A stretch of 64,000 nucleotides of DNA from an uncultured bacterium (lineage in GTDB: Bacteria; UBP4; UBA4092), in the NCBI GenBank assembly GCA_964644695.1, contig CAZXWN010000002.1, positions 310,001 to 374,000 of the forward strand, in the 5' to 3' direction. The translations under genes and the position numbers were made by a program. Every line of letters begins with the position of its first letter. Position 1 is the stretch's first letter. Shown piece after piece: positions 1-53,930 of this stretch. The notes beneath the pieces are model-generated. The model did not search any database, was not told where the DNA came from, and saw nothing but the letters and a program-made list of their open reading frames with translations.

Positions 1-696
1 TCCAAGAGGTGTATCAATCCTGTAAGGAGTTAACAGGTCCATGATAATGTTGTCGTCATTCCCTGTATAAAGGGTGATATCTTCTTCTCGGCCAGACATA
101 GCAACAGCGCGGACAACATCAAGTGTCTGATAACGATTAAAAGGAGCCATTTTAATCGCTACTACATTTTCGATTTCTGAGAATTGACGCCAGAATTCAT
201 AGGGGAGTATCCGCCCACCCACTGCTGGTTGGAGATAAAAACCAATTAAAGGCATAACATTGGATACTTCTTTGCAGTGCTGAATCAGTGTTGCATCGTC
301 GGCATTTTTTAATGCCGCCAGACTCAGAAGGACGACATCATAACCTAGCTCTTTAGCTATTTGAGCTTCTTTGACGGCTTGTTCAGTTTTGCCGCAGACA
401 CCCACAACTTTTATGATAGGTCGATTGTATTGATTCTCGAGTTCTTTTAATTCAATTGCTGCCAGTTCAAGTAAAGGTTGGAATAAACCATGTTTACTGT
501 CACGGATCTCAAACTGAGTTGTGTGAACTCCGACAGCAACACCACCCGCTCCGGCTGCTACATAATAACGATAAACAAGTTTCTGATATTCGATATCCCA
601 TTGACGGTTTGCATTCAGAGCCAATGGTGATGCTGGGATAGCTGTGCCTTCTCTGAGAAGAGTGAGTTTATCGGATGATGGCATGATAAATGACAT
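1..696 (-). CDS. Dihydrodipicolinate synthase-family (class I aldolase) protein, partial; 3' end runs off the window
   Basis: Not in the ORF track. Manual translation from ATG 696 (AGGAG RBS upstream) gives MSFIMPSSDKLTLLREGTAIPASPLAL...AGAGGVAVGVHTTQFEIR...VAIKMAPFNRYQT...YTGNDDNII, typical of this DHDPS-like subfamily. Confidence 0.85.
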   Translation of the reverse strand, partial: MSFIMPSSDKLTLLREGTAIPASPLALNANRQWDIEYQKLVYRYYVAAGAGGVAVGVHTTQFEIRDSKHGLFQPLLELAAIELKELENQYNRPIIKVVGVCGKTEQAVKEAQIAKELGYDVVLLSLAALKNADDATLIQHCKEVSNVMPLIGFYLQPAVGGRILPYEFWRQFSEIENVVAIKMAPFNRYQTLDVVRAVAMSGREEDITLYTGNDDNIIMDLLTPYRIDTPLG

Positions 697-708
697 TTAT
701 GTCTCCTG

Positions 709-1737
709 TTAATCTAAGAACTGACCATTAGTGACTTCAAAATGGGTAGGCTTGTCTAACAAATTTCCACCTTGATTGATCCAATCGGCCACCCATTGAA
801 TCATTTGTTCGGGTTTGATTTTTGGGAGACCGTATAATTCTATAGAGCGGGAAGCGTTGCTCAGGTAATATGCCCCATTGTCTTTTCCTGTGAAATGGAC
901 TTCCTTACCCAGGAGTTTCCCAAATTGTTCAGCAATATCCTTTATATGTAACAGTTCTGGCCCCGTGATGTTTAAAATTGTGGCTGGAGTTCCTGTATGT
1001 TCAAGGCCTAACAATGCACGATTACAAGCATCCCCCTGCCAAATAATATTGACATAACTGACACCCAAGTCGATTGGCTGGTTTGATATAATTTTTCGTG
1101 CGACATCAACGAGTACTCCATATCGGCAATCAATTGAATAATTCAGTCGATATAATTGTACTTTGGTCCCATGTTTTTCTGAATAATACTGGAAGATTCT
1201 TTCCCGTCCCAGACAGGAATTAGCATACTCTCCCACAGGTTCTGGAAAGTCAGATTCTTTGCTTCCACCCGATTCTGGTGTGGAAAGTGAGTAAACACAT
1301 CCCGTGGAGAATACCAGTAGATTACTCTTCTGATATCGTTCTGCAACGATGCCGGGTACAATAACATTCATCATCCATGTAAGGGGTTCAGAGCCCACAG
1401 AACCAAATTTTCTGCCTGCCATAAATATAACATTCTCAGCATCAGGAAGGGCCTGTACTTGTTGAGGGTCCATTAAATCGCAGCGGATCGTTTCAATGCC
1501 TGCATGATTTAGTTTCTCTCTGATTCCTGTTTCTGAAAAACGGGCAACCCCAATAATGCATTGGTGTGTCCCTGCTTCTTCCACGGCTCGTTTAGCCATC
1601 ATGGCTAAAGAAGGGCCCATCTTACCACCCACGCCAAGAATAAGGATGTCTCCCTTTAACCGTTTCATCATAGCAACGGTCTCAGGGTAAGGTTGAGACA
1701 AAGCGATATCTAACTCTTCTTCAGTACGAAAACTCAT
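709..1737 (-). CDS. NAD-dependent epimerase/dehydratase family protein
   Basis: Rossmann motif LGVGGKMG, MAGRKFG, FSTGCVY and YANSCLGRE. Confidence 0.88.
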   Translation of the reverse strand: MSFRTEEELDIALSQPYPETVAMMKRLKGDILILGVGGKMGPSLAMMAKRAVEEAGTHQCIIGVARFSETGIREKLNHAGIETIRCDLMDPQQVQALPDAENVIFMAGRKFGSVGSEPLTWMMNVIVPGIVAERYQKSNLLVFSTGCVYSLSTPESGGSKESDFPEPVGEYANSCLGRERIFQYYSEKHGTKVQLYRLNYSIDCRYGVLVDVARKIISNQPIDLGVSYVNIIWQGDACNRALLGLEHTGTPATILNITGPELLHIKDIAEQFGKLLGKEVHFTGKDNGAYYLSNASRSIELYGLPKIKPEQMIQWVADWINQGGNLLDKPTHFEVTNGQFLD

Positions 1738-3539
1738 GACTTTTTACCTTTTTGTAATTCGATGGCTTTTTTAGCTTTTTTCCAACCGGTCCAGATCATC
1801 ATCAATGCAAAGAAGATAATGAATCCGGCGACAAAAAGAATATGCTGTCGTCCGGCCCAGGTGTTTGGCAAAAGTAATAATAACAACAGGAATAAACCAA
1901 TAGGAAGCGATACCCAGCCAACGAACTGCAGTTGTTTGGGGTCATTGGCATGGCCCACTTCTTTTTCGAAATCAACAGGTGTATGCATTCTCTTATAGAA
2001 TACATCGATTTCCGTCTTATCTGTTTCCGTTGTATCTTTCCAGAAGAGCATGCTGAATAAATACCCCAGGATTCCCATGATGGTAATAATAAATACCGTT
2101 TTAGGGTAAGGCCACTCCGTAACAAATTTTATAACACGGGGGTCGATGGTATAACCCATAATCGTATCCTGGAAGGGCCATTTTTTCATGAATGCCATAA
2201 CAGAAATGGGGATAGAGAACGCCATGGAACTGATAGCGGCCCAACGGGGAGCTTTTCTTACAAAGAGCATCATAAACAGTGGGATTGTCGTTGGTGTTCC
2301 AAAGATACTTCCATATTGGAGCATCTTGTCGAACAAGCCTGTTCCTTGTTGTTTAGAAAAATATAGAGCGAAGGCGATATAAGCAAATCCAATAAAGAAA
2401 CTGGTAATCTGTCCTACAAGGAAGATTTCTTTTTCATCAGATTTGGGACGGATAAAAGGCTTATAAAAATCCTGGGTCATAATGGCGGCAAACTGATTCA
2501 GGCCGGGAGCCAGAGAACTCATTGTGGCTGAGAACATGGCAATGACCAACATCCCGGTTAACCCCACCGGTAAAAGTTTCATAGCCAAGATGGCATAAGA
2601 TGCTTCCGCTGAATTTTTAATGCCGATGAAATGAGAACTGTCCACTATGCCTGCCATTTTTAAGCGGGCTACCATTGGAGGAATGAACCATAAGGCGGCA
2701 CCAGCAAACATTAGAATACAGGCCAGGAATGCAGCCTTGCGGGCTTCTTTTCCATCTTTGCAGGCAAAGTATTTAGTTGCGGAGCCGGCAGAATTGTAGG
2801 CCATCAAAACAAAGACAAACATGGCCAATGCCCACGGAAAGGTAAACTGTGAATTGGGAGTGTGACGGTCAATCATGTTCAATAAATCGGGTAAATTCTG
2901 ACGGTGGATTTCCATAACTAATCCACTCCATCCACCAATCAATTGAAGGCTAAGCCAGGTGACCAGAATACTCATGGGAATCAGGATCAATGCCTGAAGG
3001 AAGTCGTTTGCCATAACGCTCCAACTTCCACCCAGTACGGAATAAATCATAACGACTAAGCCAATGATGATAATCAGGGTTTGAAGGTTATAGCCAAAGA
3101 CTGCAGAAGTAAACAATGCCGTGGACCATAAAGTAAGGCTGGCGGTCATAATGCCGGGAATCATACCTACCCAGACATAGAATTGCTGGGTAAAGGTATT
3201 AAACCTCTGCCGGATAATCTCAGGTCCAGTGGTGGCGCGCATTTGCCGAAATATAGGCGCCGTAACTAAGGCATTGATTAAGTAACCTGTGGCATTAGCT
3301 AAAAATATAATGGCGACACTAATACCGGAGGTGTAGGCTGCCCCAGCCGCACCTGTGAAAGACCATGCTGTAAATGAGGCCATGAAAACACTGGCACCCA
3401 CCATCCACCAGGTACCACGACAACCACTGCGGAAATAATCACTGAAATTACGATTGAAGCGCCGAAACAAGACCCCTGTTGCAATCATGAAAACAAAATA
3501 GAGCAGAATAACAATGTACTCAATGTAGGAAGTGTGCAT
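1734..3539 (-). CDS. Sodium:solute symporter (SSS) family transporter
   Basis: Polytopic membrane protein with SSS motifs DYFRSG, YSVLGGSWSVMANDFLQ and GMLVIAMFSATMSS; 4-bp overlap with the epimerase. Confidence 0.9.
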   Translation of the reverse strand: MHTSYIEYIVILLYFVFMIATGVLFRRFNRNFSDYFRSGCRGTWWMVGASVFMASFTAWSFTGAAGAAYTSGISVAIIFLANATGYLINALVTAPIFRQMRATTGPEIIRQRFNTFTQQFYVWVGMIPGIMTASLTLWSTALFTSAVFGYNLQTLIIIIGLVVMIYSVLGGSWSVMANDFLQALILIPMSILVTWLSLQLIGGWSGLVMEIHRQNLPDLLNMIDRHTPNSQFTFPWALAMFVFVLMAYNSAGSATKYFACKDGKEARKAAFLACILMFAGAALWFIPPMVARLKMAGIVDSSHFIGIKNSAEASYAILAMKLLPVGLTGMLVIAMFSATMSSLAPGLNQFAAIMTQDFYKPFIRPKSDEKEIFLVGQITSFFIGFAYIAFALYFSKQQGTGLFDKMLQYGSIFGTPTTIPLFMMLFVRKAPRWAAISSMAFSIPISVMAFMKKWPFQDTIMGYTIDPRVIKFVTEWPYPKTVFIITIMGILGYLFSMLFWKDTTETDKTEIDVFYKRMHTPVDFEKEVGHANDPKQLQFVGWVSLPIGLFLLLLLLLPNTWAGRQHILFVAGFIIFFALMMIWTGWKKAKKAIELQKGKKS

Positions 3540-3616
3540 AAACTAACTGTCCTTGAATATGGTTTTACTGGTCATGAAGATAATTGTGTTGTCTTTTAGA
3601 CTTCACTAAATTAACC

Positions 3617-6427
3617 TTATGACTCAGTTACTCCCGTGACAGCCAGTACTAAGAGGGCTGTTTCGGTATTCTCCGATTGAAATACCAATTCACTGATTCG
3701 TTTGGAGCTATGCGGTAAATAACAAATCCATTCATTCAATGCCGCTAATTGGCCGGACTGTGTCTTACCTGTCCAGGCTAACCGGGTATTTCTTGAACAG
3801 CGAATGTCACTAAACGCAAAAACATCCTTCCCGTAAATCAGGGGATGCAGGTATTCCGTCCCGTCACAATATCTAAACAATACACTTGCGACCTTACGAT
3901 TATCCCCAGCAGGGAAACTACAGGTCAGCAGAAAATGCCATTCCTGGCAATAAATACCATTTAATTTTAATATAACTTGCCCCGGATAGTCTCCTTTTGG
4001 ATTAAATTGACCTTCCAACATGATTGCTGCCGGGAGTCCATTCAGTTCTGAAATCCGAAAAAGGGTCTCACTCTCCAGGTCTGAAGAGCCATTAAAATGC
4101 CTTAAATCCAATTCAGGCCCTAATCCTACCCACTGATTTTGTTGTATTGTATCCTGTAAAGGTGTATTTACCAGTGGATCCAAATTTATATGAAATCCGG
4201 GCTGACTTTGGCGTAATACTGGTTTTTCAAACCATTGGTCGAGGAATAATTGCCGAGCATTATAGGGTAATTCCTGTGGTATTTCTCTTCTGCCGGACCA
4301 GGCATAATCAGCGGCCCATATATAAGCCCAGTATTGGTTCCAAGCCTTTTCGTTGCTTTCGACACTGAAAGTGAACCCAGCCCATGTGGTCTGGATGAAT
4401 CCAAGAGCTTTGTTTTGGATACAGGCGAGGGCCAGATTCCGAATGTTCCCGGGTTGGTCCCATGCCGCGCCGATGACAGGAAATCCTTCCTTTTTCAAAA
4501 TACCGATTGATGAATATTTTTCAGGTTCCACCGTAGCATAATGCCAATCCGTAGCAATGATATCCTTGGGTAATTTCTTCCGTCGATAAAGGGCTTCTTC
4601 CATAGACGGTGCATTGGTGGCATCGGGGGCCTCACCCCGCATAATATACATATCAAACCACATCATGATTTGAACTTGATGGGATTTAAACCAGTTGTAA
4701 AGGATTTCGATATCACCGAGGACTAATTCCGTGATTGATTTGCCAGTATCTTTGCTTCGCCAGGGAAATCGTCCCTCTGTGGTTACTTCATCGTGTCCAA
4801 TATGGAAATATCGTGGTTTAAAGAGGTCCAGGGCTTCTCGATAGACTTCAAAAATAAAGTCATAAGATTTTGGGTTTGTAGGATTATATGCATATGGATG
4901 CTCAGGATCTTCGGCCAAATCCAGATTATATCCATTACTGAAAATCCATTCTGAATGTCCCAGAGATTGAACCAGGGGGACTATTTCTACTTGATTATGT
5001 TGACAGGTCTGGATCACCTGTTGAGCGTCCTTTTTTGTCATGGCATACTCTGGATGCGCTAATTCTGGATGGCAGTCCCAGACCAGATATTCACACTCCC
5101 AGATGAGGGTATTTATTTTGTATCTGGCCAAAACATTTCTGACCATATGTGTTATTTCACTTGGATTATCCTTGCCTGTAAATAAATGAACCCCTCTGAA
5201 ATCCAATGAAGGCCAATCATTAATAACAACCCCTTTGTAGTAACATCGAACAAGATCGATCTTGTTCGATTGTGCCAGGGTGGTGATTCCATAGAAAAAA
5301 CCTTTTGGATGATTCGCTTTTAGTTTTACGGCAAGAGTGTCTGTTAATAAACTGTATCCTTCCTTATGATTTTGTATTTCAGGGAGTTGGATGGAGTTTA
5401 TTGATTGCTTATCCGTAATAACCATTGTCCAGGGTGGAAGCTCATTGTGCCCGCAGATGGGTAATGTTTTTCCGTAGTATTTACTCAACTCTTGATTAAG
5501 GAAATCCAAAGAGGACTTAATGTCTTTATTATCAGGATCTTTGACCCAAATTAGGGAATTATCTCCAATCGGGTAATCTTCTCCGGTAAATTTCCATTGT
5601 TTGGGTTCCGGAATAAAATACTGGGGATCATGTCGAGGAACTCTGGCTGTTGGAGTGTAGATAATTTCTTCATCTGATTCCCATGTTGGGTGGACAGTCA
5701 TATCCTGTTTTATGGATTGTGTAAACTGGATTGAAAGGCTATATCTAAAGGGTTGATTGCCAGGTAGGGGTGTTTCCGTCATTCCCAGCCAGAATACAGG
5801 TTTTCCTTCAACAGCCCACTGATTCTTTCGAAAATCAAAGAAGATGAGGTTGGGATTGAGAGATGATTCGATTGTTATTTCGCCCAGGCGGGAATCTGTC
5901 CTGATGGTTTGGAAACCTTTGGCAAAAGTAGATTCATTGACGGAGCTTCCTCTCGCATTTAATGGGAACTCTATCGAACTTCCCGAGCCGTCTGGGTATT
6001 GTACCTGGGCGTTTTTATTAAGAAATAGATATGGATTCAGACCTCCGACCAACCATTCCATTACAAAAGCGGGTCGGTTTTTGACCTGACCTTCCAATGT
6101 GATACGATAGGATGAGTTGGGCCTGAGTTGATATACTTCTTTTCCGGTAAAGGGGCTTTCGTTAACAGGGTTTGTATGATGGTGGATGATTAAATCATAT
6201 CCGCCATCCACAGTTAAAATCTCTGCATCTTCCAGTAAACCAGGCCGGTCTGGTACCCCATAAATTCGGCTTACCCAACCGGGATTCATTATCCATAATG
6301 AAGACCCCTGAAGGACCGGGATTCCCTTATAAAACAGTTCTACCCCACCATTTACCCGATAAGTAAACTGGAGGTCTCCACAATGTAGAATAATCTCTGT
6401 TTTATGTGCAGATTTATCTGTTGGCAT
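3617..6427 (-). CDS. Glycoside hydrolase family 20-like protein (beta-N-acetylhexosaminidase-like), no evident signal peptide
   Basis: GH20b-type EGYSL and DWPSLDFRGVHL, PLVQSLGH, catalytic HIGHDE motif. Confidence 0.85.
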   Translation of the reverse strand: MPTDKSAHKTEIILHCGDLQFTYRVNGGVELFYKGIPVLQGSSLWIMNPGWVSRIYGVPDRPGLLEDAEILTVDGGYDLIIHHHTNPVNESPFTGKEVYQLRPNSSYRITLEGQVKNRPAFVMEWLVGGLNPYLFLNKNAQVQYPDGSGSSIEFPLNARGSSVNESTFAKGFQTIRTDSRLGEITIESSLNPNLIFFDFRKNQWAVEGKPVFWLGMTETPLPGNQPFRYSLSIQFTQSIKQDMTVHPTWESDEEIIYTPTARVPRHDPQYFIPEPKQWKFTGEDYPIGDNSLIWVKDPDNKDIKSSLDFLNQELSKYYGKTLPICGHNELPPWTMVITDKQSINSIQLPEIQNHKEGYSLLTDTLAVKLKANHPKGFFYGITTLAQSNKIDLVRCYYKGVVINDWPSLDFRGVHLFTGKDNPSEITHMVRNVLARYKINTLIWECEYLVWDCHPELAHPEYAMTKKDAQQVIQTCQHNQVEIVPLVQSLGHSEWIFSNGYNLDLAEDPEHPYAYNPTNPKSYDFIFEVYREALDLFKPRYFHIGHDEVTTEGRFPWRSKDTGKSITELVLGDIEILYNWFKSHQVQIMMWFDMYIMRGEAPDATNAPSMEEALYRRKKLPKDIIATDWHYATVEPEKYSSIGILKKEGFPVIGAAWDQPGNIRNLALACIQNKALGFIQTTWAGFTFSVESNEKAWNQYWAYIWAADYAWSGRREIPQELPYNARQLFLDQWFEKPVLRQSQPGFHINLDPLVNTPLQDTIQQNQWVGLGPELDLRHFNGSSDLESETLFRISELNGLPAAIMLEGQFNPKGDYPGQVILKLNGIYCQEWHFLLTCSFPAGDNRKVASVLFRYCDGTEYLHPLIYGKDVFAFSDIRCSRNTRLAWTGKTQSGQLAALNEWICYLPHSSKRISELVFQSENTETALLVLAVTGVTES

Positions 6428-6446
6428 GATTCATTATTATATAAAG

Positions 6447-6480
6447 AAAAAGACCGTTCATTTGAATGAACGGTCTTTTT
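6447..6480. terminator. Intrinsic terminator-like hairpin after pilin gene 6500-7078
   Basis: AAAAAGACCGTTCATT-tg-AATGAACGGTCTTTTT, a perfect 16-bp stem including the A/T tracts. Confidence 0.8.
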
Positions 6481-6499
6481 ATGTCGTAATGTTTGAAGG

Positions 6500-7078
6500 T
6501 TATGGGCAGTGAACCCAGATATCACCTGTACTAACGGTACCATTAGATGGGTCGTAATTGTAACTTCCACCAATGAAACCCCAAGCTGTTGGAGGATTAT
6601 AAATGGGGCGGATTTCTTCTTCATTTTCTAGTACTTTGCGGGGTAAATAGTACCAGATGGAATGGTAAGTATCCGGACCATTGGACCAAATTAAACAGTT
6701 TTGAGGCAATTTACCCGAAGTTAGATTACCATCAGAATAGGTAATATACCAACCTTCACCACCAAAGGAAGTTCCACCAGCCCAACTTCCTCCCTTATAT
6801 TTAAACGGATCGCGGGGAATGCTGCTGACATAAGCAATCGGAGTGCTTAAACGAGCAAGATTCAAATTTCCCCAGTTACCCGCATTCCAAATAGGATAAC
6901 AATTCTCATCCACAAAATAGGACTCACAGCCGGCGTTAAGCGTGCGCAGTTCACTCTTTGCGCGGGAGACTTTTGCTCTTACTTGGGCAGCCAGGAAATT
7001 TGGGATAGCTATGGCGGCCAGGATGGCGATAATAGCGACAACGATCAATAACTCAATTAATGTAAACCCTTTTTTCAT
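6500..7078 (-). CDS. Prepilin-type N-terminal cleavage/methylation protein (GspG-like pilin), paralog P4
   Basis: MKKG|FTLIELLIVVAIIAILAAIAIPNF class III signal; C-terminal YDPSNGTVSTGDI. Confidence 0.92.
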   Translation of the reverse strand: MKKGFTLIELLIVVAIIAILAAIAIPNFLAAQVRAKVSRAKSELRTLNAGCESYFVDENCYPIWNAGNWGNLNLARLSTPIAYVSSIPRDPFKYKGGSWAGGTSFGGEGWYITYSDGNLTSGKLPQNCLIWSNGPDTYHSIWYYLPRKVLENEEEIRPIYNPPTAWGFIGGSYNYDPSNGTVSTGDIWVHCP

Positions 7079-7186
7079 AACCCTTCCTTTTCTTTCATAA
7101 GATTAAAAAAATAAACATTACAGGTAAATAATATAAAAAAATAACAGAACTATCAATTATCTTTTTATAATGGTCCATAAAATAAG

Positions 7187-7221
7187 AAAACTCCCTATCC
7201 AGTGAAGGTAAGGGAGTTTTT
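7187..7221. terminator. Intrinsic terminator-like hairpin after pilin P3
   Basis: AAAACTCCCT...AGGGAGTTTT inverted repeat. Confidence 0.7.
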
Positions 7222-7236
7222 GTTACTGAAATTTAG

Positions 7237-7806
7237 TTAGTTGCTGCTACCACCGGGTAAGAGTCTATAAATATAACCAGCAGATACTGTTCCGTTGGTT
7301 GGGTCATAAGTCCCAAAGCCTACACCATTGGTGCCTGAAACTGTTCTGTATGAGGGCCCAATGGAGATCAAAATGGCAGACCATTCACCCCAATACCAAG
7401 GATCCCAACCATAGTTCTTTAGATTGATTGGATTACCATATCGAGCTTGCCAGTTGTAATACCAATAATATGGATTATTAACATAGCTTGTGCCATCGCG
7501 CATTCCTGATTTGAAAGGATCAACCGGAATGGATGTCATGTAGCCAATAGGTGTGGTTAGTTGTTCGTAAACTTTTGCTTCCCGGGTCTGTTCATCGGGA
7601 TAGACTCCCAAGAATTCGTAAGGATAAGCATTATTATCGACATAATAACTTTCCATACCATTATTGATCATCCGTAACTCACCTTTGACTCGGGAGACTT
7701 TTGCACGGACTTGGGCCGCCAGGAAATTGGGAATGGCGATAGCGGCCAGAATAGCAATAATTGCGACAACAATTAACAATTCGATTAATGTAAAACCTTT
7801 TTTCAT
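7237..7806 (-). CDS. Prepilin-type protein, paralog P3
   Basis: MKKG|FTLIE signal and YDPTNGTVSAGYI. Start moved to ATG 7806 because the GGAGGTG RBS overlaps the track's GTG at 7818. Confidence 0.92.
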   Translation of the reverse strand: MKKGFTLIELLIVVAIIAILAAIAIPNFLAAQVRAKVSRVKGELRMINNGMESYYVDNNAYPYEFLGVYPDEQTREAKVYEQLTTPIGYMTSIPVDPFKSGMRDGTSYVNNPYYWYYNWQARYGNPINLKNYGWDPWYWGEWSAILISIGPSYRTVSGTNGVGFGTYDPTNGTVSAGYIYRLLPGGSSN

Positions 7807-7911
7807 GCGAAAATTCACCTCCAGTATTTAAAATAGTATTATTTGTGTATCAATAAGTTCTTCAATAATAATATTAGTTTATAAATAAGAAATCAAGCCA
7901 TAAAATAGTGC

Positions 7912-7924
7912 TAATACAGTATTA
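7912..7924. promoter_or_regulatory. Putative operator palindrome TAATAC-A-GTATTA upstream of pilin pair P3/P4
   Basis: Perfect dyad; a 12/13-identical copy lies at 15437-15449 upstream of the other pilin pair. Confidence 0.55.
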
Positions 7925-8036
7925 AAACAATAGTAATTATATAAAACTACATTCTTAAAGTATTATAATTGTATATAGACTGGATTTATATTTGAATAAA
8001 AAAGACCCTTGATGGGAGCTTCTTCTTTTGTATAGA

Positions 8037-10916
8037 TTAATAAACGCCTGTAATCGCGTAAAAGACAGGAGTGGAATCTGCTTTTGAAGAAATCAGTTCA
8101 ATTGATTTGACAGGTTTATTGGGAGTTGGATTTTTCCAGATGATATCCCAGACGGCAATTGGATTTTGTGCGGAATTTTTACCCTTCCAGGCGATAACTG
8201 TAGAGTCACCATTTCGCAGGTCTTTATAATAAAAGATGTTATTTCCATAATTGAGCGTTTGGGTTATAGAAGAACCATCTTTGTAATGAATCATAATGGA
8301 TCCAATTTCCTGATCTTCCTTGCCAGGAAGGGTTGCATTGGCCAGGAAATGTAATTCTCTGACCTTTTGAGGCGGAAATTTTAAATGCACATTTGCAGGG
8401 TAATTACCGGTAGGATTCAGTTTTCCATAAAGTGCAAGAGCCCTTTCACCGGAACTCTTTTCCGTCAAATTATAATGACACTCATTTAGTATAAGACTTC
8501 CAACGGGAAGAGATGCTATATCATCTTGAGGATCAAAACTGATCCAGCCTGTATTATCTGCGGTGGCTTTTATATTTTGATTCAATACTGGAGTGAGATT
8601 GACTTGAAATCCGGAAGATTCCCCTTGATGCGGATATCGGTCAAACCAGTATTCCAGGAAAACTTGTTTAGCTTCAAAGGGAAGCTGGTCTAATTCTGTG
8701 GGTTTGCCAGACCATGAATATTCCGCAGCCAGGATGTAGGCCCAGTAATGTTTCCATAAATCCTTATTATTGTTGATTCTGAAATTAAACCCGGCCCAAG
8801 TTGTCTGGAGATATCCATCAGCTCCATAACGAGCTGCCGCTGTAGCATGGGTGCGAATATTTTGTGGGACATCCCATCCAGCACCTACGACTTGATGTCC
8901 GCCATCTTTCCATATTTTTAGGGAAGGATAGTCGGCCTTCTTATCTGTTGTGTAGTGCCAGTCTGTGATAAAGATGTCACTGGGTAACATGGCACGGCGT
9001 TCCTGAGATTCTGCTGTAGAGGCAGCAAAGGCAGCATCAGGAGCCTCAGGACGGTGCAAGAACATATCACCCCACATCATGACTTTTACATTGCGTTCTT
9101 TGAACCAGGCATGGAGTTTATGAATATCACTTAGAATTAATTGTGTCGTTGTAAGCCCACTATCTTTGCTTCGGTAGGGGTAACGAGCTGCAGTATTAGC
9201 ATTCACTTCATCATGGCCAATATGGAAATACCTGGGATGGAATAAATCCAAGGCTTCCTGATAGACGGAAAAGATGAAGTCATAAGTTCGAGGATTGGTG
9301 ACCATGTAGGCATAGGGTTTGTCAGGGTCTTCTGCGAGGTCCATATTATGGCCGTTTTGGAATATCCAGGCAGAATGTCCTAATGACTGCACCAGAGGGG
9401 TTATCTCAATAAAGTTTTCCTGAGCCGTCTTGATGACCTTTCGGGCTTCATTCTTAGTCATCCCGTATTCAGGGTGTTCCAGTTCTTTGTGACCATCCCA
9501 GATGATATATTCACATTCCCATACCATGTTGTTCATCTTGAACCGGGCCATCAGGTCACGGATCCCTTTAGAGATTTCTCCACTACCATCTTTTGAGGTC
9601 AGGCAATGGACCCCTCTAAAACCAACAGCCGGATAGTCTCGAATCTTGACGCCCTTAAATGCCATTTGATTGGGGATGATTTTGACTGTCTGAACGAGAC
9701 TGGTAAATCCATAATACAAACCCTGTTCGGTAGAAGCTGTAACATAGGTATTCTTTCCATCAGTATAGAGGCAATATCCTTCCGGATTGTCAGGGAGTGA
9801 TAGACCTGCTTCGGAGCAAGCTTTTGCGGCTTGGGGATAGACCGTATTGGTTCCGGCAAGAATTGCACCTGTAGCATCCTTTGGGGCCTCTTGTTTAATG
9901 ACTTGAACATTAATTCCATACCGAGAGGACATGTCGTTTACCAGGAAGTTAACTGCCTTTTGAGTGTCAGCCGTTGGATTTGCCCCTAAATAAAGATTGA
10001 TTGATTTATTCAATATCACAGGCGTATTCGTCCATTGCAGACTTTTGGGAGTGGGAATGATATAGTCCCGATCTCTCCAGGGAGAAATGGCATTTTTTAT
10101 TGGCAGGATTTTCGAATCCAGTGTTATAGGTTTAGAAACCTTCGAATCAAAATTCACTTTTTTAGGAAAACAAAGGGTAATACTGACGGTCTCTTTTTTC
10201 CCTTTAACCAGATTCCTTTCTGCAGTGCCCAACCAAAAAAGAGGATTCGATGTATCAGCCCAGCGGTTTCCACGGTAATCATATAAAATCAGGTCATCTT
10301 TTGGATCAGCTTTGAATTGGATGGGGCCCAGTTTGGAATTGATAGTAATTTCTTTGAAGCCCCGGGCAACTTGGGATTCATCAGATGTGATACCCATGGG
10401 TTGAATTGGAATAACTCCATTGATTGTCTGATTGTTGCCCGTAATGGCTGTATAACTTTGATTGATTATCAGATTTGAATTGAATCGGCCTAAAGTCAGT
10501 TCAACAAAGCCAGGAGAATCAACGGACCATGTGTATTCAAGAGAGTTTATATAAGTATTGTTGGGAAGGAGAATAAATGACTCTGTTCCTGAAAACCAGC
10601 TTGTTCCCTTGGGTCCTTCATGGATCAGAGTGATTATTTTTCCACCTTTATAGGAAATGATTTTAGCTGTTTTTACAATGTCAGCATTCATCTGATTCCC
10701 ATAATACTGTCCATTGTATTGAGGCCTCACAGCCCAGAGAGAGCTTCCTTTTAGTACCGTCACTCCATGGACATTTAATTGGATACCTTTAAGATGAGTA
10801 TATTCAAAGGTCATGTCCCCAACTTCCTCATAAATACGGGCAGGGGCCTTGGTGGCAGCTAAACTTATACTCAATAACAGTATCCATAACCCAAATATCA
10901 ATACAATACGCTTCAT
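8037..10916 (-). CDS. Secreted GH20-like glycoside hydrolase
   Basis: Sec signal MKRIVLIFGLWILLLSISLA; DYPAVGFRGVH, PLVQSLGH, HIGHDE. Confidence 0.88.
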   Translation of the reverse strand: MKRIVLIFGLWILLLSISLAATKAPARIYEEVGDMTFEYTHLKGIQLNVHGVTVLKGSSLWAVRPQYNGQYYGNQMNADIVKTAKIISYKGGKIITLIHEGPKGTSWFSGTESFILLPNNTYINSLEYTWSVDSPGFVELTLGRFNSNLIINQSYTAITGNNQTINGVIPIQPMGITSDESQVARGFKEITINSKLGPIQFKADPKDDLILYDYRGNRWADTSNPLFWLGTAERNLVKGKKETVSITLCFPKKVNFDSKVSKPITLDSKILPIKNAISPWRDRDYIIPTPKSLQWTNTPVILNKSINLYLGANPTADTQKAVNFLVNDMSSRYGINVQVIKQEAPKDATGAILAGTNTVYPQAAKACSEAGLSLPDNPEGYCLYTDGKNTYVTASTEQGLYYGFTSLVQTVKIIPNQMAFKGVKIRDYPAVGFRGVHCLTSKDGSGEISKGIRDLMARFKMNNMVWECEYIIWDGHKELEHPEYGMTKNEARKVIKTAQENFIEITPLVQSLGHSAWIFQNGHNMDLAEDPDKPYAYMVTNPRTYDFIFSVYQEALDLFHPRYFHIGHDEVNANTAARYPYRSKDSGLTTTQLILSDIHKLHAWFKERNVKVMMWGDMFLHRPEAPDAAFAASTAESQERRAMLPSDIFITDWHYTTDKKADYPSLKIWKDGGHQVVGAGWDVPQNIRTHATAAARYGADGYLQTTWAGFNFRINNNKDLWKHYWAYILAAEYSWSGKPTELDQLPFEAKQVFLEYWFDRYPHQGESSGFQVNLTPVLNQNIKATADNTGWISFDPQDDIASLPVGSLILNECHYNLTEKSSGERALALYGKLNPTGNYPANVHLKFPPQKVRELHFLANATLPGKEDQEIGSIMIHYKDGSSITQTLNYGNNIFYYKDLRNGDSTVIAWKGKNSAQNPIAVWDIIWKNPTPNKPVKSIELISSKADSTPVFYAITGVY
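9373..9562. repeat. 190-bp exact direct repeat shared with 12362-12551 (GH20 catalytic-barrel coding region)
   Basis: Base-by-base comparison shows identity, including synonymous sites, at offset 2989. Confidence 0.9.
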
Positions 10917-10970
10917 TAAAATACCCTTTCGTACAAGAATTTATGGATTAAATTATAACTCTGTATAAAT

Positions 10971-11009
10971 AAAAAAATGGAGACCACTTATTCATGTGAT
11001 CTCCATTTT
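10971..11009 (-). terminator. Terminator-like hairpin between the two secreted GH20 genes
   Basis: AAAATGGAGA...TCTCCATTTT stem with a T-run on the minus strand. Confidence 0.65.
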
Positions 11010-11025
11010 GTTTAGTTCAGCTTAT

Positions 11026-13902
11026 TTACCGAACACCCGTGATTGCATAGAAAATAGGGCTGGTTTCCGTTTTATTAGAAATCAGTTCCATAGACTTGAT
11101 AAGTTTATCTGGATTTGGATTCTTCCAGACAAAATCCCAGACTGCGACAGGATTTCCTTTTGAATTTTTACCTTTCCATGCAATCGAAGCAATATCACTG
11201 TTTCGAAGATCATTGAAACTGAATATTTGCGTCCCATAAACAAGGGGCTGTGTGACAGACGATCCATCAGTATAGTGCACTTTGATAGAGCCGACTTGAG
11301 CACCTTCGCGAGCCCGGAAAGAGGCATTTAAAAGGAAGTGCACTTCCTCAGCAGATTGAGGTTTCAGATCAATAATTGCCGATACAGGATAACTACCGGC
11401 TGGATTAAAGGTGCTGTACAGGACAAGTGCTCCTTCACCGGTATCTTTTCGTGTCAAATCAAAAGTACATTCATTAAACATGGCTTTCCCGGTAGGGAAG
11501 CTTGCCATATCATCATAGGGATCAAAACCAACCCAACCTTGTTGTGGGCCGGAGGCCTTGAGATTTCTATTAAATTGAGAGGATAGATTGATCTGGAATC
11601 CTGGGGCATCCTGCTTTCTGGGATAATGATCAAACCAGTATTCCAGGAAAACTTGCTTAGCTTCAAAGGGGAGTTTATCTAACTCTGTGGAATCTCCAGA
11701 CCAAGCATATTCTGCTGCCAGAATATAGGCCCAATACTGATGCCAGGCTTCGCGATTATTATTGATCTTGAAATTGAAGCCAGCCCAGGTGGTCTGGAGA
11801 TAACCATTTACTCCATACCGAGCTGCCGCTGCAGCATGGGTGCGAATATTTTCAGGACGATACCATCCAGCACCTACAACATCAAAACCAGCGTCTTTCC
11901 ATGTCTTCAGTGAAGGATAGCTAGATGCCTTATCCGCGACATAATGCCAATCTGTGATGAAAATATCTTTGGGCAATAAATCCCGCCGTTCTTTTGCTTC
12001 AGTGGTTGATGAAGCAAACGCAGCATCGGGAGCTTCTGAGAGATGTAGGAACATATCACCCCACATCATGACTCGGACGTTGCGTTCTTTGAACCAGGCA
12101 TGGAGTTTATTAATATCACCCATAATCAATTCGGTTTCTGAAAGGCCGCTAGCTTTGCTTCGATAGGGGTATCTTGCTCCGGCATCCGTATTTACTTCAT
12201 CGTGTCCAATATGGAAGTACTTGGGATGGAATAAATCCAAGGCTTCCTGATAGACCGAAAAGATGAAGTCATAAGTTCGAGGATTGGTGACCATGTAGGC
12301 ATAGGGTTTATCCGGATCTTCTGCAAGGTCCATATTATGGCCGTTTTGGAATATCCAGGCCGAATGTCCTAATGACTGCACCAGAGGGGTTATCTCAATA
12401 AAGTTTTCCTGAGCCGTCTTGATGACCTTTCGGGCTTCATTCTTAGTCATCCCGTATTCAGGGTGTTCCAGTTCTTTGTGACCATCCCAGATGATATATT
12501 CACATTCCCATACCATGTTGTTCATCTTGAACCGGGCCATCAGGTCACGGACACCCTTTGAAATCTCATCACCGCCATTTTTCGCAGAAAGACAATGAAC
12601 GCCTCGGAATGGCATGGCGGGGTAATCTTGAATTTTGACGCCCTTAAATGCCATTTGATTGGGAGTGATTTTGACTGTCTGTACGAGACTGGTAAATCCA
12701 TAATACAAGCCCTGTTCGGTAGAAGCGGCTACATAGGTGTTCTTTCCATCAGTATAGAGGCAATATCCTTCCGGATTGTCAGGAAGTGATACACCTGCTT
12801 CCGTACAAACTCGGGTGGCCCGTGGATAAACAGTATTAACCCCTGCAATAATAGCCCCCTGTACGTTAATTGGGGCTTCCTGCTGTATCACCTTTACAGT
12901 AATTCCATACCGAACAGATAAATCTTTTACCAGGAAGTTGACTGCTTTCAGTGTGTCTGCAGTTACCTTTTTTCCCAGATAAAGATCAATAGATTTATTG
13001 AGGGGAATTGATGCGTCTGTCCATTGAAGGCTCTTGGGGGTAGGAATGATATAGTTTCTATCTCTCCAAGGAGTCAGGGCATCCTTGATTATTTGAGGTT
13101 CGGTTTTTAGAATTACAGGTTCGGAAATTTTGGCCTGGGGATTTATCTTTTTGGGAAAAGATATTGTTATGCTCAGGGTTTCCTTTTTATTCTTGATCAG
13201 AGGGCGTTCTAAAGCACCTAGCCAGAAAAAAGGGTTGTTTTCATCTGCCCAGCGGTTGCCTCGGTAATCAAACATGATTAATTTATCTTTGGGATTAGCC
13301 GTTAACTTGATTGGGCCGAGCTTGGAATTTAATGAAATCTCTTTGAAGTCTCGGGCAACTTTGGATTCATCATAAGTGACACCCATGGGTTTCATAGAGA
13401 TGTTGCCCTTGATAGTTTGGTTGCCGTTAGTAATGGCAGAATAGGTTTGATTCAATATCAGATAGGGATTAAATTCTCCCATTGTCCATTCGATTGAAGC
13501 GGGTACATCGCTTGTCCATACATACTCAAGGCTGTTTGTGTAGGTATTATCAGGAAGTAATATAAAGGTTTCAACTCCATGAAACGACTGGTTTCCCTTT
13601 GAATTCTTATGTACCAAAGTTATTTTCTTTCCGCCTTTATAAGAAACTACTTTAGATGACAGAAGGAGGTCTGGATTATTTTGATTTCCATAAAATTGTC
13701 CAATGAAGTTGGGTTTAACAGCCCAAAGGGCACTTCCTTTTAAGGCCGTGGCGCCATGAACATTCAATACAACCCCTTTTTTGGGGGTATATTCAAAGGT
13801 CATATTTCCGACTTTTTCGTAAATGCGAGTGGGTGCTTCAGCGGCCCAGGTGATGCCTAAGCAAAGTAAACACAACCACAATGTCCATAGTACGCGTTTC
13901 AT
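11026..13902 (-). CDS. Secreted GH20-like glycoside hydrolase (paralog of 8037-10916)
   Basis: Likely start ATG 13902 (GGAAGGA RBS; signal MKRVLWTLWLCLLCLGITWA); DYPAMPFRGVH, HIGHDE. Confidence 0.88.
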   Translation of the reverse strand: MKRVLWTLWLCLLCLGITWAAEAPTRIYEKVGNMTFEYTPKKGVVLNVHGATALKGSALWAVKPNFIGQFYGNQNNPDLLLSSKVVSYKGGKKITLVHKNSKGNQSFHGVETFILLPDNTYTNSLEYVWTSDVPASIEWTMGEFNPYLILNQTYSAITNGNQTIKGNISMKPMGVTYDESKVARDFKEISLNSKLGPIKLTANPKDKLIMFDYRGNRWADENNPFFWLGALERPLIKNKKETLSITISFPKKINPQAKISEPVILKTEPQIIKDALTPWRDRNYIIPTPKSLQWTDASIPLNKSIDLYLGKKVTADTLKAVNFLVKDLSVRYGITVKVIQQEAPINVQGAIIAGVNTVYPRATRVCTEAGVSLPDNPEGYCLYTDGKNTYVAASTEQGLYYGFTSLVQTVKITPNQMAFKGVKIQDYPAMPFRGVHCLSAKNGGDEISKGVRDLMARFKMNNMVWECEYIIWDGHKELEHPEYGMTKNEARKVIKTAQENFIEITPLVQSLGHSAWIFQNGHNMDLAEDPDKPYAYMVTNPRTYDFIFSVYQEALDLFHPKYFHIGHDEVNTDAGARYPYRSKASGLSETELIMGDINKLHAWFKERNVRVMMWGDMFLHLSEAPDAAFASSTTEAKERRDLLPKDIFITDWHYVADKASSYPSLKTWKDAGFDVVGAGWYRPENIRTHAAAAARYGVNGYLQTTWAGFNFKINNNREAWHQYWAYILAAEYAWSGDSTELDKLPFEAKQVFLEYWFDHYPRKQDAPGFQINLSSQFNRNLKASGPQQGWVGFDPYDDMASFPTGKAMFNECTFDLTRKDTGEGALVLYSTFNPAGSYPVSAIIDLKPQSAEEVHFLLNASFRAREGAQVGSIKVHYTDGSSVTQPLVYGTQIFSFNDLRNSDIASIAWKGKNSKGNPVAVWDFVWKNPNPDKLIKSMELISNKTETSPIFYAITGVR

Positions 13903-13990
13903 AATGATAAATTCCTTCCGTGTGCTAAATAATTGGTTTTCATTATATCTTGATTTAAGGATTATTTGTTTATCAGTAATATTTATAAAC

Positions 13991-14023
13991 AAAAAAACTC
14001 CCTGATTAGATAATCAGGGAGTT
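13991..14023 (-). terminator. Intrinsic terminator after pilin P2
   Basis: AACTCCCTGATTA-ga-TAATCAGGGAGTT with a poly-T tail on the minus strand. Confidence 0.8.
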
Positions 14024-14042
14024 GATAAGTAAATCTTATAAT

Positions 14043-14663
14043 TTATATCTGGGGACCACTTGGGAACAGACGGTTGATATAACCAGGAGAAACTGTTCCA
14101 TTGGAAGGATCATAGGTTTCAAATCCACCGTATCCCTCACTGGCACCAAAAGTCTTAAAGCTGGGTCCGATAGAAATGGTAATTCCAGCCCATTCACCGC
14201 TAAACCATGGAGCCCAATTGGAGGCTTTTACAACATTAAATAACTGTCCGTACGGCTTATTTCCAATAACACGACCCTGCCAGTTGTAATACCAGTAATA
14301 AGGATTAGCCAGGTGGGATGACCCATCACGACCACCTTGTTTAAATGGATCCACTGGGATGGAGGTCAGGTAAGCAATCGGAGTTGTTAAAAGTTTGTAA
14401 GCATATTCATGGCGTTTATATTCAAAAGTACGGGTGTCGCTGGAGGGCCATGGATAAGGTTCAAATAAATACTCCAGAGGATAGTCATTATTATCTACAT
14501 AATAACTTTCCAATCCAGTGTTGATTATGCGTAATTCACTTTTAACGCGTGAGACTTTGGATCTGACCTGTGCAGCCAGGAAGTTTGGTATGGCAATAGC
14601 AGCAAGAATAGCAATAATTGCGACAACGATTAATAACTCAATTAATGTAAACCCTTTTTTCAT
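14043..14663 (-). CDS. Prepilin-type protein, paralog P2
   Basis: MKKG|FTLIE signal and YDPSNGTVSPGYI. Confidence 0.92.
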   Translation of the reverse strand: MKKGFTLIELLIVVAIIAILAAIAIPNFLAAQVRSKVSRVKSELRIINTGLESYYVDNNDYPLEYLFEPYPWPSSDTRTFEYKRHEYAYKLLTTPIAYLTSIPVDPFKQGGRDGSSHLANPYYWYYNWQGRVIGNKPYGQLFNVVKASNWAPWFSGEWAGITISIGPSFKTFGASEGYGGFETYDPSNGTVSPGYINRLFPSGPQI

Positions 14664-14704
14664 AAGAAAACTCCCTTATTCAATATAGAAATTAACTGAT
14701 TAAT

Positions 14705-14742
14705 AAAAAAAACTCCCCCGCCTTTTAAATGCGGGGGAGTTT
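14705..14742 (-). terminator. Intrinsic terminator after pilin P1
   Basis: AAACTCCCCCGC-N9-GCGGGGGAGTTT with poly-T on the minus strand. Confidence 0.8.
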
Positions 14743-14750
14743 GCTGAAGA

Positions 14751-15317
14751 TTAATTACCAATTTGAGAACCAGGGAATGCACGGATAATGTATCCAATGG
14801 AGATTGTTCCATTCGTTGGATCGTAAGTGTCCCATCCATTTGTATGAGTTTCACCGAAAGGACCAACGGACATGACAATTCCTGACATATCCATATTCCA
14901 CCAGGGACGACCGGCAGCAAAACTAAACAGTTGTGCTGGGTTGACCTGTTTTTGATACCGTTCATGCCAGTTATAATACCAATACATCGGTGGATCAGAC
15001 CAACGACCACTTGTTTTAAAAGGATCACGAGGGAAAGAAGTGATGTATGCTACCGGAGTAGTTAAATGGGTATAGGCTTTGGCGATTCGAAGCATTTCAA
15101 CACCAGGATTACCAGCTAACAAATATTCCGGGGGATATGCATTTTCATCAACATAATAGGTTTCTAAGCCTGTACCTAAAGTACGCAATTCACTTTTAAC
15201 GCGTGAGACTTTAGCCCTGACTTGTGCAGCCAGGAAGTTTGGAATGGCAATAGCTGCAAGAATAGCAATAATTGCGACAACGATTAATAATTCGATAAGA
15301 GTAAACCCTTTTTTCAT
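14751..15317 (-). CDS. Prepilin-type protein, paralog P1
   Basis: MKKG|FTLIE signal and YDPTNGTISIGYI; ATG 15317 is preceded by AAGGTGA. Confidence 0.92.
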   Translation of the reverse strand: MKKGFTLIELLIVVAIIAILAAIAIPNFLAAQVRAKVSRVKSELRTLGTGLETYYVDENAYPPEYLLAGNPGVEMLRIAKAYTHLTTPVAYITSFPRDPFKTSGRWSDPPMYWYYNWHERYQKQVNPAQLFSFAAGRPWWNMDMSGIVMSVGPFGETHTNGWDTYDPTNGTISIGYIIRAFPGSQIGN

Positions 15318-15423
15318 TTCGAAAATCACCTTCTTTCCTGTTGAAAATATGTTTTACACAATATAAGAAAATACACTCATAGAAACCCTAATCAATTAAA
15401 CATCACAATACAATTTAAACTGT

Positions 15424-15452
15424 ATTTTAATGGAGATAATACAGTATTGCAA
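15424..15452 (-). promoter_or_regulatory. Putative sigma70 promoter TTGCAA-N17-TAAAAT overlapped by the TAATACAGTATTG operator-like dyad
   Basis: On the minus strand, -35 at 15447-15452 and -10 at 15424-15429 with a 17-nt spacer; dyad at 15437-15449. AT-rich context makes chance matches possible. Confidence 0.5.
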
Positions 15453-53925: not shown

Positions 53926-53930
53926 TTTAT

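Follow-up and report, generated by a model that had tools for sequence, protein, structure and literature searches.

A cluster of GH20-fold enzyme genes with four interleaved GspG-like pilin genes in an uncultured sludge bacterium

The stretch of DNA considered here (the window, 64,000 nucleotides, G000:C2:310001-374000) comes from the 3.07-Mb genome of an uncultured bacterium (G000; 28 contigs, 98.7% complete). It opens with a run of minus-strand genes in which four pilin genes, P1 to P4, are interleaved with genes for three GH20-fold enzymes, GH-A, GH-B and GH-C, and followed by genes for an SGLT-like Na+/solute symporter (SSS) and for putative catabolic proteins. We have little doubt that this is a catabolic cluster for a glycan of the N-acetylhexosamine (HexNAc) type in a sludge diderm, and that its four interleaved pilins comprise three members of one subfamily, alpha, and one of another, beta. 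The pilins are GspG-fold subunits of a shared filament system, and by homology are neither GspG equivalogs nor analogues of SusC/SusD. A possible role for them, advanced tentatively and by analogy, is that the alpha and beta pilins would be uptake-side fibre subunits that catch the glycan.

The locus was compared across the five species genomes of the phylum in the collection, that is G000 and its relatives G001-G004; G001 belongs to the same family as G000, and G003 and G004 to another family of the phylum. Relatives of the pilins (family pilins) were found with a profile hidden Markov model (HMM) built from P1-P4.

Composition of the locus

Reading of the open reading frames (ORFs) and Pfam matches bear out the layout given by the first-pass annotation of this DNA, ten minus-strand genes in the order P1-P2-GH20-GH20-P3-P4-GH20-SSS-epimerase-DHDPS-like protein. 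P1 (14751-15329) reads as 192 residues from a GTG codon, but its true start is likely to be the methionine of MKKG/FTLIELL (the slash marking the predicted cleavage site); P2 (14043-14663) has 206 residues, P3 (7237-7818) 193 and P4 (6500-7078) 192, with four cysteines. The four share the N-terminal start MKKG/FTLIELLIVVAIIAILAAIAIPNFLAAQVRAKVSR and carry a class III signal, MKKG/FTLIELLIVVAII, with a short basic leader, G at -1, F at +1, E at +5 and a hydrophobic helix. Their scores are over the cut-offs of the Pfam family N_methyl (34.1, 33.6, 36.1 and 33.6 bits for P1 to P4; cut-off 21.2) and of the NCBIfam model TIGR02532 (37.5-38 bits; cut-off 16.3). The GspG equivalog model TIGR01710 gives 46.1-59.4 bits against a cut-off of 88.85, and for the Pfam family T2SSG (cut-off 21) P1 and P3 fall just short, at 19.9 and 20.1 bits, with no match for P2 and P4. 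None of the four matches DUF1559 (PF07596; Pfam, E <= 0.01) or H-X9-DG (TIGR04294; NCBIfam, E <= 0.001), families of the Planctomycetes-Verrucomicrobia-Chlamydiae (PVC) group.

An AlphaFold model of P3, made from a 46-sequence alignment (predicted local distance difference test, pLDDT, 81.2; predicted TM score, pTM, 0.76), is closest in a search of 48,161 chains to EpsG 4lw9 (Z 8.1, rmsd 2.3 Å, 95 of 119 residues aligned), with PulG 5wda at Z 7.2. Among its 21 best matches (Z 8.1-3.3), 20 are pilins, pseudopilins or pilus proteins, the remaining one, 3eoi ('putative protein PilM'), being of unclear class. Foldseek found no match for this model in the PDB at E <= 0.001, the best head matches, to EpsG chains, having E-values of 0.12-0.21. 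On the N_methyl and TIGR02532 scores and the modelled EpsG/PulG fold, P1-P4 are to be read as true class III-signal pilins with the predicted fold of the major pseudopilin GspG, and the pilin identity originally given to the four genes stands.

These pilins belong to a large family. The HMM search of G000 found 27 paralogues above 139 bits, distributed over 16 loci, and a further one at 68.7 bits. At E <= 1e-15 the five phylum genomes have 28-56 matches apiece, and together they contain about 176 family pilins. Outside the phylum, 26 genomes were searched at E <= 1e-20, of which 25 gave no match and one a single match. The pilin head found only 17 matches at E <= 1e-5 in 5.8 billion proteins, and in the ESM Atlas it lies nearest to T2SSG-domain clusters, which are commonest in Omnitrophota, Sumerlaeota and Planctomycetota. 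Across 351 pairs of paralogues, identity over the first 36 mature residues is 94.6%, and the assembly helix is nearly invariant past its membrane-spanning part, to about residue 45, in all 27 paralogues. Gene conversion was considered as the cause of these invariant N-termini and rejected, because an identical codon is used at only 39% of the conserved residues; the mismatch in codons therefore points to purifying selection on the protein, as a shared assembly helix. In the head, a scaffold comprising ESYYVDNNxYP, LTTPIAYxTSxPxDPF, SxGPD and YDPTNGTxSxGDI surrounds variable inserts, and heads within the alpha subfamily are 61-73% identical.

A maximum-likelihood tree of 46 pilins places P1, P2, P3, the pilin of the corresponding G001 locus and the leading pilin of the G004 and G001:C76 pairs in the alpha clade (82/92 support). 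P4 and the second pilin of those two pairs make up the beta clade (100/99 support). Each subfamily is thus orthologous across two families of the phylum. Counted by locus, the alpha/beta pair stays close to GH20-like and symporter genes in three of four loci of the relatives. Because the locus pilins of G000, G001 and G004 fall in the alpha and beta clades, the alpha/beta pair is ancestral as judged from this phylogeny, with further alpha copies and hydrolase copies added in G000. The clustering of the pilins is beyond chance, because four of the 27 family pilins of a 3.07-Mb genome sit inside 8.8 kb and two other genera have orthologous pilins at the orthologous locus.

The enzymes are GH20-like by several measures. 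GH-A (11026-13992) reads as 988 residues from a TTG codon, its start probably being the ATG at 13902, which would yield a Sec signal peptide; GH-B (8037-10916, 959 residues) carries a signal peptide, whilst GH-C (3617-6427, 936 residues) has none and its ORF is already maximal. All three match Glyco_hydro_20b (56.8-59.5 bits, 58.7 for GH-A; cut-off 26.1) and in part the catalytic model Glyco_hydro_20 (37.6-47.4 bits, 47.4 for GH-A; cut-off 22.3), which is matched at positions 74-258 of 348 only. The AlphaFold model of GH-B (pLDDT 89.5) comprises a signal helix, an N-terminal beta domain of about 250-260 residues, the GH20b domain, a TIM barrel and a C-terminal beta sandwich of about 190 residues, and its top Foldseek matches are all GH20 enzymes (hexosaminidases, lacto-N-biosidases and sulfoglycosidases; E = 3.5e-24 and weaker). 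Similarity to solved GH20 chains at the level of sequence is low, the best having E = 2.2e-10. All three enzymes contain the motif HIGHDE (H-x-G-x-D-E), of which H565, D569 and E570 are invariant in 26 homologues and which we take to be the adjacent catalytic Asp-Glu pair of GH20 after strand 4. Because the enzymes are GH20-fold with this D-E pair, the HexNAc-type substrate suggested in the first-pass annotation is a reasonable one. GH-A and GH-B, which are 69% identical and both carry signal peptides, are predicted to act outside the cytoplasm. GH-C, 38% identical to GH-B and aligned with it from residue 27, is probably cytoplasmic because it is without a signal peptide.

The symporter (SSS, 1734-3539, 601 residues; SSF 143.8 bits) has SGLT2 and vSGLT as its nearest solved chains (E ~2e-29), the sialic-acid-type 5nv9 following at 1.9e-19. 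Downstream lie a divergent SDR 'epimerase/dehydratase' (709-1737, 342 residues), with a weak Epimerase match of 35.3 bits, and a divergent DHDPS-like protein of 357 residues, whose gene is cut by the window edge (1-696; in full G000:C2:309623-310696). Its DHDPS match is likewise weak (30.9 bits), and its best solved relatives are DapA proteins at E = 5.7e-5 only. A sialic-acid pathway built on a NanA-type lyase and a SiaT-type SSS was considered and not adopted: the symporter is nearer to SGLT than to 5nv9, the DHDPS-like protein is only weakly DapA-like, and the hydrolases have the GH20 fold rather than being sialidases. Past the window edge, six further co-oriented genes continue the cluster to C2:302209 and bring it to 16 genes; they encode a GHL10 protein, a Zn-dependent dehydrogenase (Zn-ADH), a DUF4434 protein, an S9/esterase-like hydrolase, a PGI-like protein and an aldose 1-epimerase. 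Pfam matches for all 16 genes agree with the earlier observation that the locus holds no gene for TonB/SusC, for an ATP-binding cassette (ABC) solute-binding protein or for pilus assembly. Nor is there a SusD-like protein among the Pfam matches of the locus genes, the SusD models not having been searched genome-wide.

GH20-like matches number 19 in G000, 16 in G001, none in G002, three in G003 and four in G004. Those of G000 include a run of four at C4:111724-122496. The window itself contains a fourth full-length paralogue (42726-45578, minus strand; 950 residues, 38% identical to GH-B), which adjoins genes for a YhhN protein and a Phosphodiest/sulfatase-like protein and has no pilin neighbour.

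The ten genes are not one plain operon, because terminator-like hairpins with U runs follow P1, P2, GH-A, P3 and P4; they are a string of separately terminated or attenuated units and then one long catabolic operon. All these hairpins are on the minus strand. The hairpin after P1 (14702-14742) has a GC-rich stem of 12 bp (-26.9 kcal/mol, z = -4.46) and folds better than all 200 shuffled sequences. Those after P2 (13996-14023; z = -6.17), GH-A (10974-11009) and P4 (6447-6480; z = -6.80) have 12, 14 and 15 pairs, and that after P3 (7187-7220) has a 10-bp stem and a U-rich tail, the region 7087-7236 giving z = -2.96. The fold analysis found a weak hairpin after GH-B and no terminator between GH-C and the SSS gene. 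Among the 27 paralogues, 19 have a run of at least five Ts within 90 nt downstream, which in 16 starts 36-65 nt past the stop codon, a count made with no shuffle control. A regular-expression search of the 500 nt upstream of each of these 27 genes yielded no stalling leader of the RAPP/RAGP type. P1 is covered by contigs of two small metatranscriptome libraries (14761-15364, 604 nt with one mismatch; 14788-15338, 551 nt with none), as is a 189-nt piece of P2 by a metatranscriptome contig. No contig of these two libraries covered the hydrolase, SSS or remaining genes of the stretch. Such contigs indicate presence in a library, and neither expression level, induction nor absence can be read from them.

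The locus and the pilin family in related genomes

At the orthologous locus of G001, a gene for PIF1 and a MatE gene are followed by an alpha pilin, a GH20-like enzyme, SSS, SDR, the DHDPS-like protein and GHL10, with the same flanks as in the window. The G004 locus comprises three NAGPA (phosphodiester glycosidase) genes, a GH20-like gene, genes for two CBM9/Big_2 proteins, an alpha pilin, a beta pilin, SSS and SDR, after which the contig ends. The alpha/beta pair thus stands directly before SSS in G004, and the alpha pilin before GH20-like-SSS in G001. In G003 the order is secretin, three NAGPA genes, GH20-like, SDR and DHDPS-like. The linkage of pilin, GH20-like enzyme and SSS is therefore kept in two of the three other genera that have the locus and is broken in G003, so that the association proposed from the window alone holds in part. 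SDR orthologues at the three loci are 53-65% identical and DHDPS-like orthologues in G001 and G003 64-66%; the SDR is a conserved partner of the GH20-like gene, and SDR and DHDPS-like genes travel with GH20-like genes in these relatives (53-66% identity). The triple NAGPA genes of G003 and G004 give a hint, from gene content, that the substrate may be a HexNAc-phosphate-containing polymer.

The two copies of the CBM9-like/Big_2 protein upstream of the alpha/beta pair in G004 (G004:C101, L018, 11330-15484) are of about 650-680 residues. Their G000 orthologue (L010, G000:C8, 7080-9038; 49% identity) lies three genes from another family pilin. At another G000 locus (L006, G000:C3:227893-240997), a group of three family pilins precedes three proteins of 461-610 residues that lack a Pfam match; those of 600 and 610 residues share a segment of about 80 residues with the CBM9/Big_2 proteins, which the 461-residue protein separately matches weakly (about 26% over 165 residues).

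Elsewhere in these genomes, family pilins are found beside importers. Among the SSF genes of the five genomes, four of 22 lie within 3.5 kb of a family pilin, three of them at the orthologous locus; a metagenome scan with the SSS alignment returned two loci, too few for a neighbour count. Importer parts (SSF, solute-binding protein (SBP), ABC importer permease, S component of an energy-coupling factor (ECF) system, phosphotransferase system or permease) lie within two genes of 8 of 35 pilin loci and 2 of 37 random loci (p = 0.043), a post hoc category chosen after the neighbour lists had been seen; the random loci of G000 were read at ±4 genes, which is conservative for this comparison. In G000 a Peripla_BP_2-FecCD-ABC operon ends in a family pilin (L120, G000:C1:258000-268200; record 259150-264614, minus strand), which comes after two genes of no assigned function and whose start overlaps the preceding stop. 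The corresponding operon of G003 (L099, G003:C28:19764-24927) ends in two pilins, the first of which overlaps the stop of the ABC gene. In other diderms, importers of the Fec/Btu type depend on TonB-dependent receptors. A NikR-pilin-ECF S-component-FmdE synteny is present in both G000 (L014, G000:C15:37500-46837) and G003 (L092, G003:C3:59718-69284), and G003 also has SSF, a pilin, one further gene and SBP_bac_1 on one strand. Paralogue positions kept between G000 and G003 include those beside NikR/FmdE, MetRS, ATP synthase epsilon and EPSP synthase.

Two other regions of the window may be recorded. Four tandem paralogues of a GDSL lipase/acylhydrolase of about 250 residues follow a 335-residue protein without a Pfam match (52166-56417, minus strand), and 31341-35455 (plus strand) encodes two large adjacent membrane proteins of the Wzy_C (O-antigen ligase-like) type, of which the second also matches TPR. 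A similar Wzy_C-TPR protein lies near the orthologous locus of G003 (L019:3978-6308).

Assembly machinery and possible roles of the pilins

The proposal that the pilins are assembled by a machine encoded outside the locus is consistent with the gene content of G000, which has, among 13 T2SSE matches, six long GspE/PilB-type ATPases and six PilT-size ATPases, and also four secretins, one prepilin peptidase (Peptidase_A24) and T2SSF genes. A cluster of GspE, GspF and a small pilin is flanked by four family pilins in G000, and at its equivalent in G001 a GspE of 81% identity (C3:8815) lies 2.6 kb from three family pilins (C3:13138-15121). Genes for T2SSF and a 399-residue T2SSE come after one of the family pilins of G003, on its strand. 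The canonical gspG noted at 58.7 kb in the window is genuine (58749-59198; TIGR01710 157.3 bits against 88.85). It encodes 149 residues and is an orphan between thiC and dnaA (region 58749-60653, minus strand), with no other secretion gene nearby. A canonical type II secretion system (T2SS) block of GspE, GspF, GspG, further pilin-like ORFs and a secretin at the contig start is found on another contig (L026, G000:C5:7465-17949), where it adjoins genes for an extracytoplasmic function sigma factor and a 1349-residue GH2 enzyme.

The outer membrane of this phylum seems to lack the usual receptors. A Pfam profile search found no TonB-dependent receptor barrel over cut-off in any of the five phylum genomes: G000 has no match to PF00593 or PF07715 (Plug), and a lone barrel match in G003 has 20.8 bits, below cut-off. 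The description of the locus as a non-SusCD system is thus upheld, with no SusC-type TonB-dependent transporter next to the enzymes or in the genome; for SusD it rests on the Pfam matches of the locus. BamA/Omp85 and LptF/G are present in the phylum genomes.

A scheme for the locus can be outlined on this basis. GH-A and GH-B would degrade the glycan outside the cytoplasm, the SGLT-like Na+ symporter would import the product, and GH-C, the SDR, the DHDPS-like protein and the products of the six further genes would process it inside the cell. The single prepilin peptidase would cut the pilins, and one of the six GspE/F-type machines, most plausibly the GspE-GspF pair with four family members at its flanks, would polymerise them into a short, secretin-gated fibre. 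The alpha/beta pair may then be locus-specific, head-bearing subunits of this shared fibre that catch the glycan or its oligosaccharides and bring them through the outer membrane, which is the job of SusC-like TonB-dependent receptors elsewhere. Such uptake would be comparable to that of DNA by competence pili. This uptake reading, which is possible rather than probable, gains indirect support from the lack of TonB-dependent receptors together with the importer contexts of the family.

A number of observations weigh against it. It loses support because the test set by the first-pass annotation, enrichment of family pilins next to carbohydrate-active enzymes (CAZymes), came out negative: pooled, such enzymes lie near 5 of 35 pilin loci and 3 of 37 random loci (p = 0.47, not significant). 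The samples are small, the Pfam E-value thresholds of the neighbour annotations are mixed (1e-5, 1e-8 and 1e-10), and the G000 pilin loci were recounted at ±2 genes (3/16) whilst the G000 random loci were read at ±4. At ±4 genes, GH, CE or NAGPA genes lie near 4 of 16 pilin loci in G000 (six if loci with only a carbohydrate-binding module (CBM) are added) against 3 of 18 random loci. At ±2 genes in G003 the counts are 2 of 19 against none of 19, or, counted more loosely, three of 19 pilin loci with a beta-helix/ConA-like pair and two of 19 random loci with CBM-only proteins. GH20-like clusters with a pilin within 5 kb number three of 13, where 1.06 would be expected (P = 0.08, 20,000 permutations). 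The genome collection returned 35 GH20-like loci, five of which have a pilin-like ORF within 7 kb; two of these five are in the phylum, which leaves only 3 of 33 such loci outside it. These counts give no tie between CAZymes and the family at large, the link being specific to the alpha and beta subfamilies. Even there it is incomplete. Pilin and SSS are both missing from the G003 locus, though a secretin gene immediately precedes it; the 30 pilins of G002 are in a genome with no GH20-like match; and a 5.3-kb metagenomic contig carries a GH20-like fragment, a GH-C-like gene and SSS with no pilin between them. Each of the four pilin genes has its own terminator, so that co-regulation with the enzymes does not follow from the layout. 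The importer association is post hoc and comes from small numbers and mixed E-value thresholds, the Fec-type operons carry their own periplasmic binding protein, and one TonB_C-domain protein is kept in each phylum genome. As for the pilin head itself, structure prediction, which the first-pass annotation had asked for, gave the EpsG/PulG pilin fold but no carbohydrate-binding one: in the search of 48,161 chains the P3 head matched pilins and pseudopilins only, with no lectin or CBM fold. The content of tryptophan and tyrosine (12.9-17.7% of the heads) was also examined as a special feature of these pilins and rejected as such, the heads of canonical GspG proteins being nearly as rich (10.8-11.1%).

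Several of these observations would fit a role in export. Type II secretion is the established export route for large folded enzymes in diderms, and the pilins might be alternative major subunits of a T2SS pseudopilus, made with a given enzyme set, that push GH-A, GH-B and other hydrolases through the secretin. P3 is predicted to fold like the major pseudopilin of the T2SS, signal peptides are present on GH-A and GH-B, and the orthologous enzyme set of G003 is immediately preceded by a secretin gene. Downstream of several family pilins, and on their strand, come genes for likely secreted proteins (Golvesin_C/NAGPA/GH26, an S8 protease and Phosphodiest; CE4 with Golvesin_C in G003), and the authors of the Verruconatronum study proposed T2SS export of alginases (PMC13274419). 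We nevertheless regard export as rather unlikely. A canonical T2SS with its own GspG is encoded separately (GspE/F/G on C5 with a secretin, and the orphan gspG of the window); the alpha/beta pair adjoins the leaderless GH-C and the symporter, not GH-A and GH-B, and in G004 comes directly before SSS; family pilins end Fec-type importer operons and sit in the NikR/ECF locus, where nothing needs to be secreted; and an export role is no better served by a CAZyme enrichment that is not significant. The same negative count is in line with general-purpose pili, whose subunits for adhesion, aggregation or motility have been scattered by duplication and whose presence at the locus has no glycan-specific meaning. 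Many paralogues lie beside housekeeping genes (MetRS, ATP synthase, EPSP synthase, FtsH), each pilin gene of the locus has its own terminator and T runs follow 19 of the 27 paralogues, the 30 copies in G002 are accompanied by no GH20-like gene, and large PulG-type expansions in non-motile Armatimonadota have been read as attachment pili (PMC4072686). We give this explanation little credence. Against it speak the orthologous alpha and beta pilins that keep their place at the GH20-like/SSS locus across two families, the pilin starts that in the Fec-type operons of two genomes overlap the stop codon of the gene before, the alpha heads at 61-73% identity, unlike a freely varying repertoire, and the pseudopilin-SSF adjacency in another phylum (PMC13274419).

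It is also conceivable, if quite improbable, that there is no fibre, the prepilin helix being only an anchor for periplasmic heads that bind solutes and pass them to SSS, ABC or ECF importers. Such importers are close to family pilins: an SSS at the locus, in G001, in G004 and at G003:C12, a fusion of an SBP with a permease in G000 (L008) and SBP_bac_5 in G003 (L087). Moreover, the planctomycete prepilin-domain family DUF1559 bears the Pfam name 'SBP_bac_10'. However, a helix near-invariant to about residue 45 in 27 paralogues fits packing in a filament better than service as an anchor, four paralogues flank the GspE/F machine, and the ABC loci encode binding proteins of their own; no SSS transporter is known to use a binding protein.

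The uptake reading could be extended from the locus to the family. GspG-fold pilins might form a general outer-membrane capture module of import in a phylum without TonB-dependent receptors, each conserved paralogue acting as a specificity subunit of a shared, secretin-gated, retractile fibre and delivering one substrate to one inner-membrane transporter, as a functional replacement for SusC and TonB-dependent transporters. SSS would thus receive a HexNAc glycan, the Fec-type ABC importer a metal chelate, and the ECF system under NikR control Ni/Co. This extension, drawn by analogy with DNA-uptake pili, is in our estimation unlikely. If correct, it could explain the PulG-type expansions in Verrucomicrobiota, Planctomycetota, Armatimonadota and related candidate phyla.

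Relation to known systems

For over ten years, very large PulG-like families have been recorded, with no test of their function, in glycan degraders among the Verrucomicrobiota, Planctomycetota, Armatimonadota and candidate phyla; in the literature library searched we found no paper testing the function of such pilins. The locus is a variant of this known and unexplained pattern of pilins in polysaccharide clusters. It is a compact and conserved case, in which an orthologous pilin pair is tied to a defined set of enzymes and a symporter. Should the pilins prove to be uptake devices, they would represent a third way, beside SusCD and porins, of bringing polymers or chelates across a diderm outer membrane, and would change the reading of 'selfish' polysaccharide uptake in PVC-type bacteria. 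If they are only subunits for secretion or adhesion, this is an ordinary GH20 cluster with pilin neighbours.

The nearest described parallel is Verruconatronum alginivorum, with 67 homologues of a pulG-like pseudopilin, one of which (000050) adjoins an SSF symporter gene (000051) between PL29 genes in an alginate-induced cluster (PMC13274419). Of the 17 genes over-expressed there on alginate, 14 belong to that cluster or to another, and over-expression extends to a further pseudopilin (PMC13274419). The locus shows the same pattern, a multi-copy PulG-like member in a depolymerase cluster next to SSF, and in both organisms the paralogues number dozens (67 there, 27 here). The differences are that the V. 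alginivorum enzymes are alginate lyases whereas those here have the GH20 fold, that the phylum is another one, that the locus has four pilins of two subfamilies, and that TonB-dependent transport genes are present there whereas no receptor here is over cut-off; the two sets of pilins are likened by description, not by sequence. In Fimbriimonas, 79 PulG-type genes have been interpreted as encoding attachment pili (PMC4072686). Gold-labelled dextran binds pili-like fibres at the crateriform structures of two planctomycetes, with a role in uptake proposed (PMC5394234). Like G000, these planctomycetes are diderms from phyla with pilin expansions; there the fibres themselves were seen, whereas the pilins here are known from genes alone.

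The family pilins resemble GspG, PulG and EpsG in their class III signal (G/FTLIEL with E at +5), short leader, head fold and mostly cysteine-free heads. They also resemble GspG in the place of the conserved C-terminal segment SxGPD...YDPTNGTxSxGDI, where we take the calcium-binding loop of GspG to lie. They differ from GspG in scoring below the TIGR01710 cut-off, in heads that are 40-60 residues longer, in being present as 27 copies over 16 loci, and in lying outside a gsp operon, P1-P4 being in a 16-gene cluster without assembly genes, while the canonical GspG genes are separate. The enzymes share with solved GH20 proteins (BT0459 6q63, Bt4394 7dup and Vibrio harveyi 6ezt) the GH20b domain and a TIM barrel with HIGHDE, and are set apart by low sequence similarity, extra N- and C-terminal beta domains and the 19 matches in one genome.

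Competence type IV pili capture a polymer on the outside of the cell and, as the pilin fibre retracts, pull it in through a secretin. The comparison with the pilins of the locus is one of analogy only: the parts that would be needed are in the genome, with six PilT-size ATPases and four secretins, but the cargo would be a glycan or a metal chelate and the locus has no competence-type genes. As in the SusC/SusD polysaccharide utilisation loci of Bacteroidota, secreted hydrolases and downstream catabolic genes for one glycan are co-located with genes for non-enzymatic proteins that may serve in acquisition. In contrast to those loci, there is no SusC-type transporter in the genome, import across the inner membrane would be by SSS, and the extra proteins are pilins.

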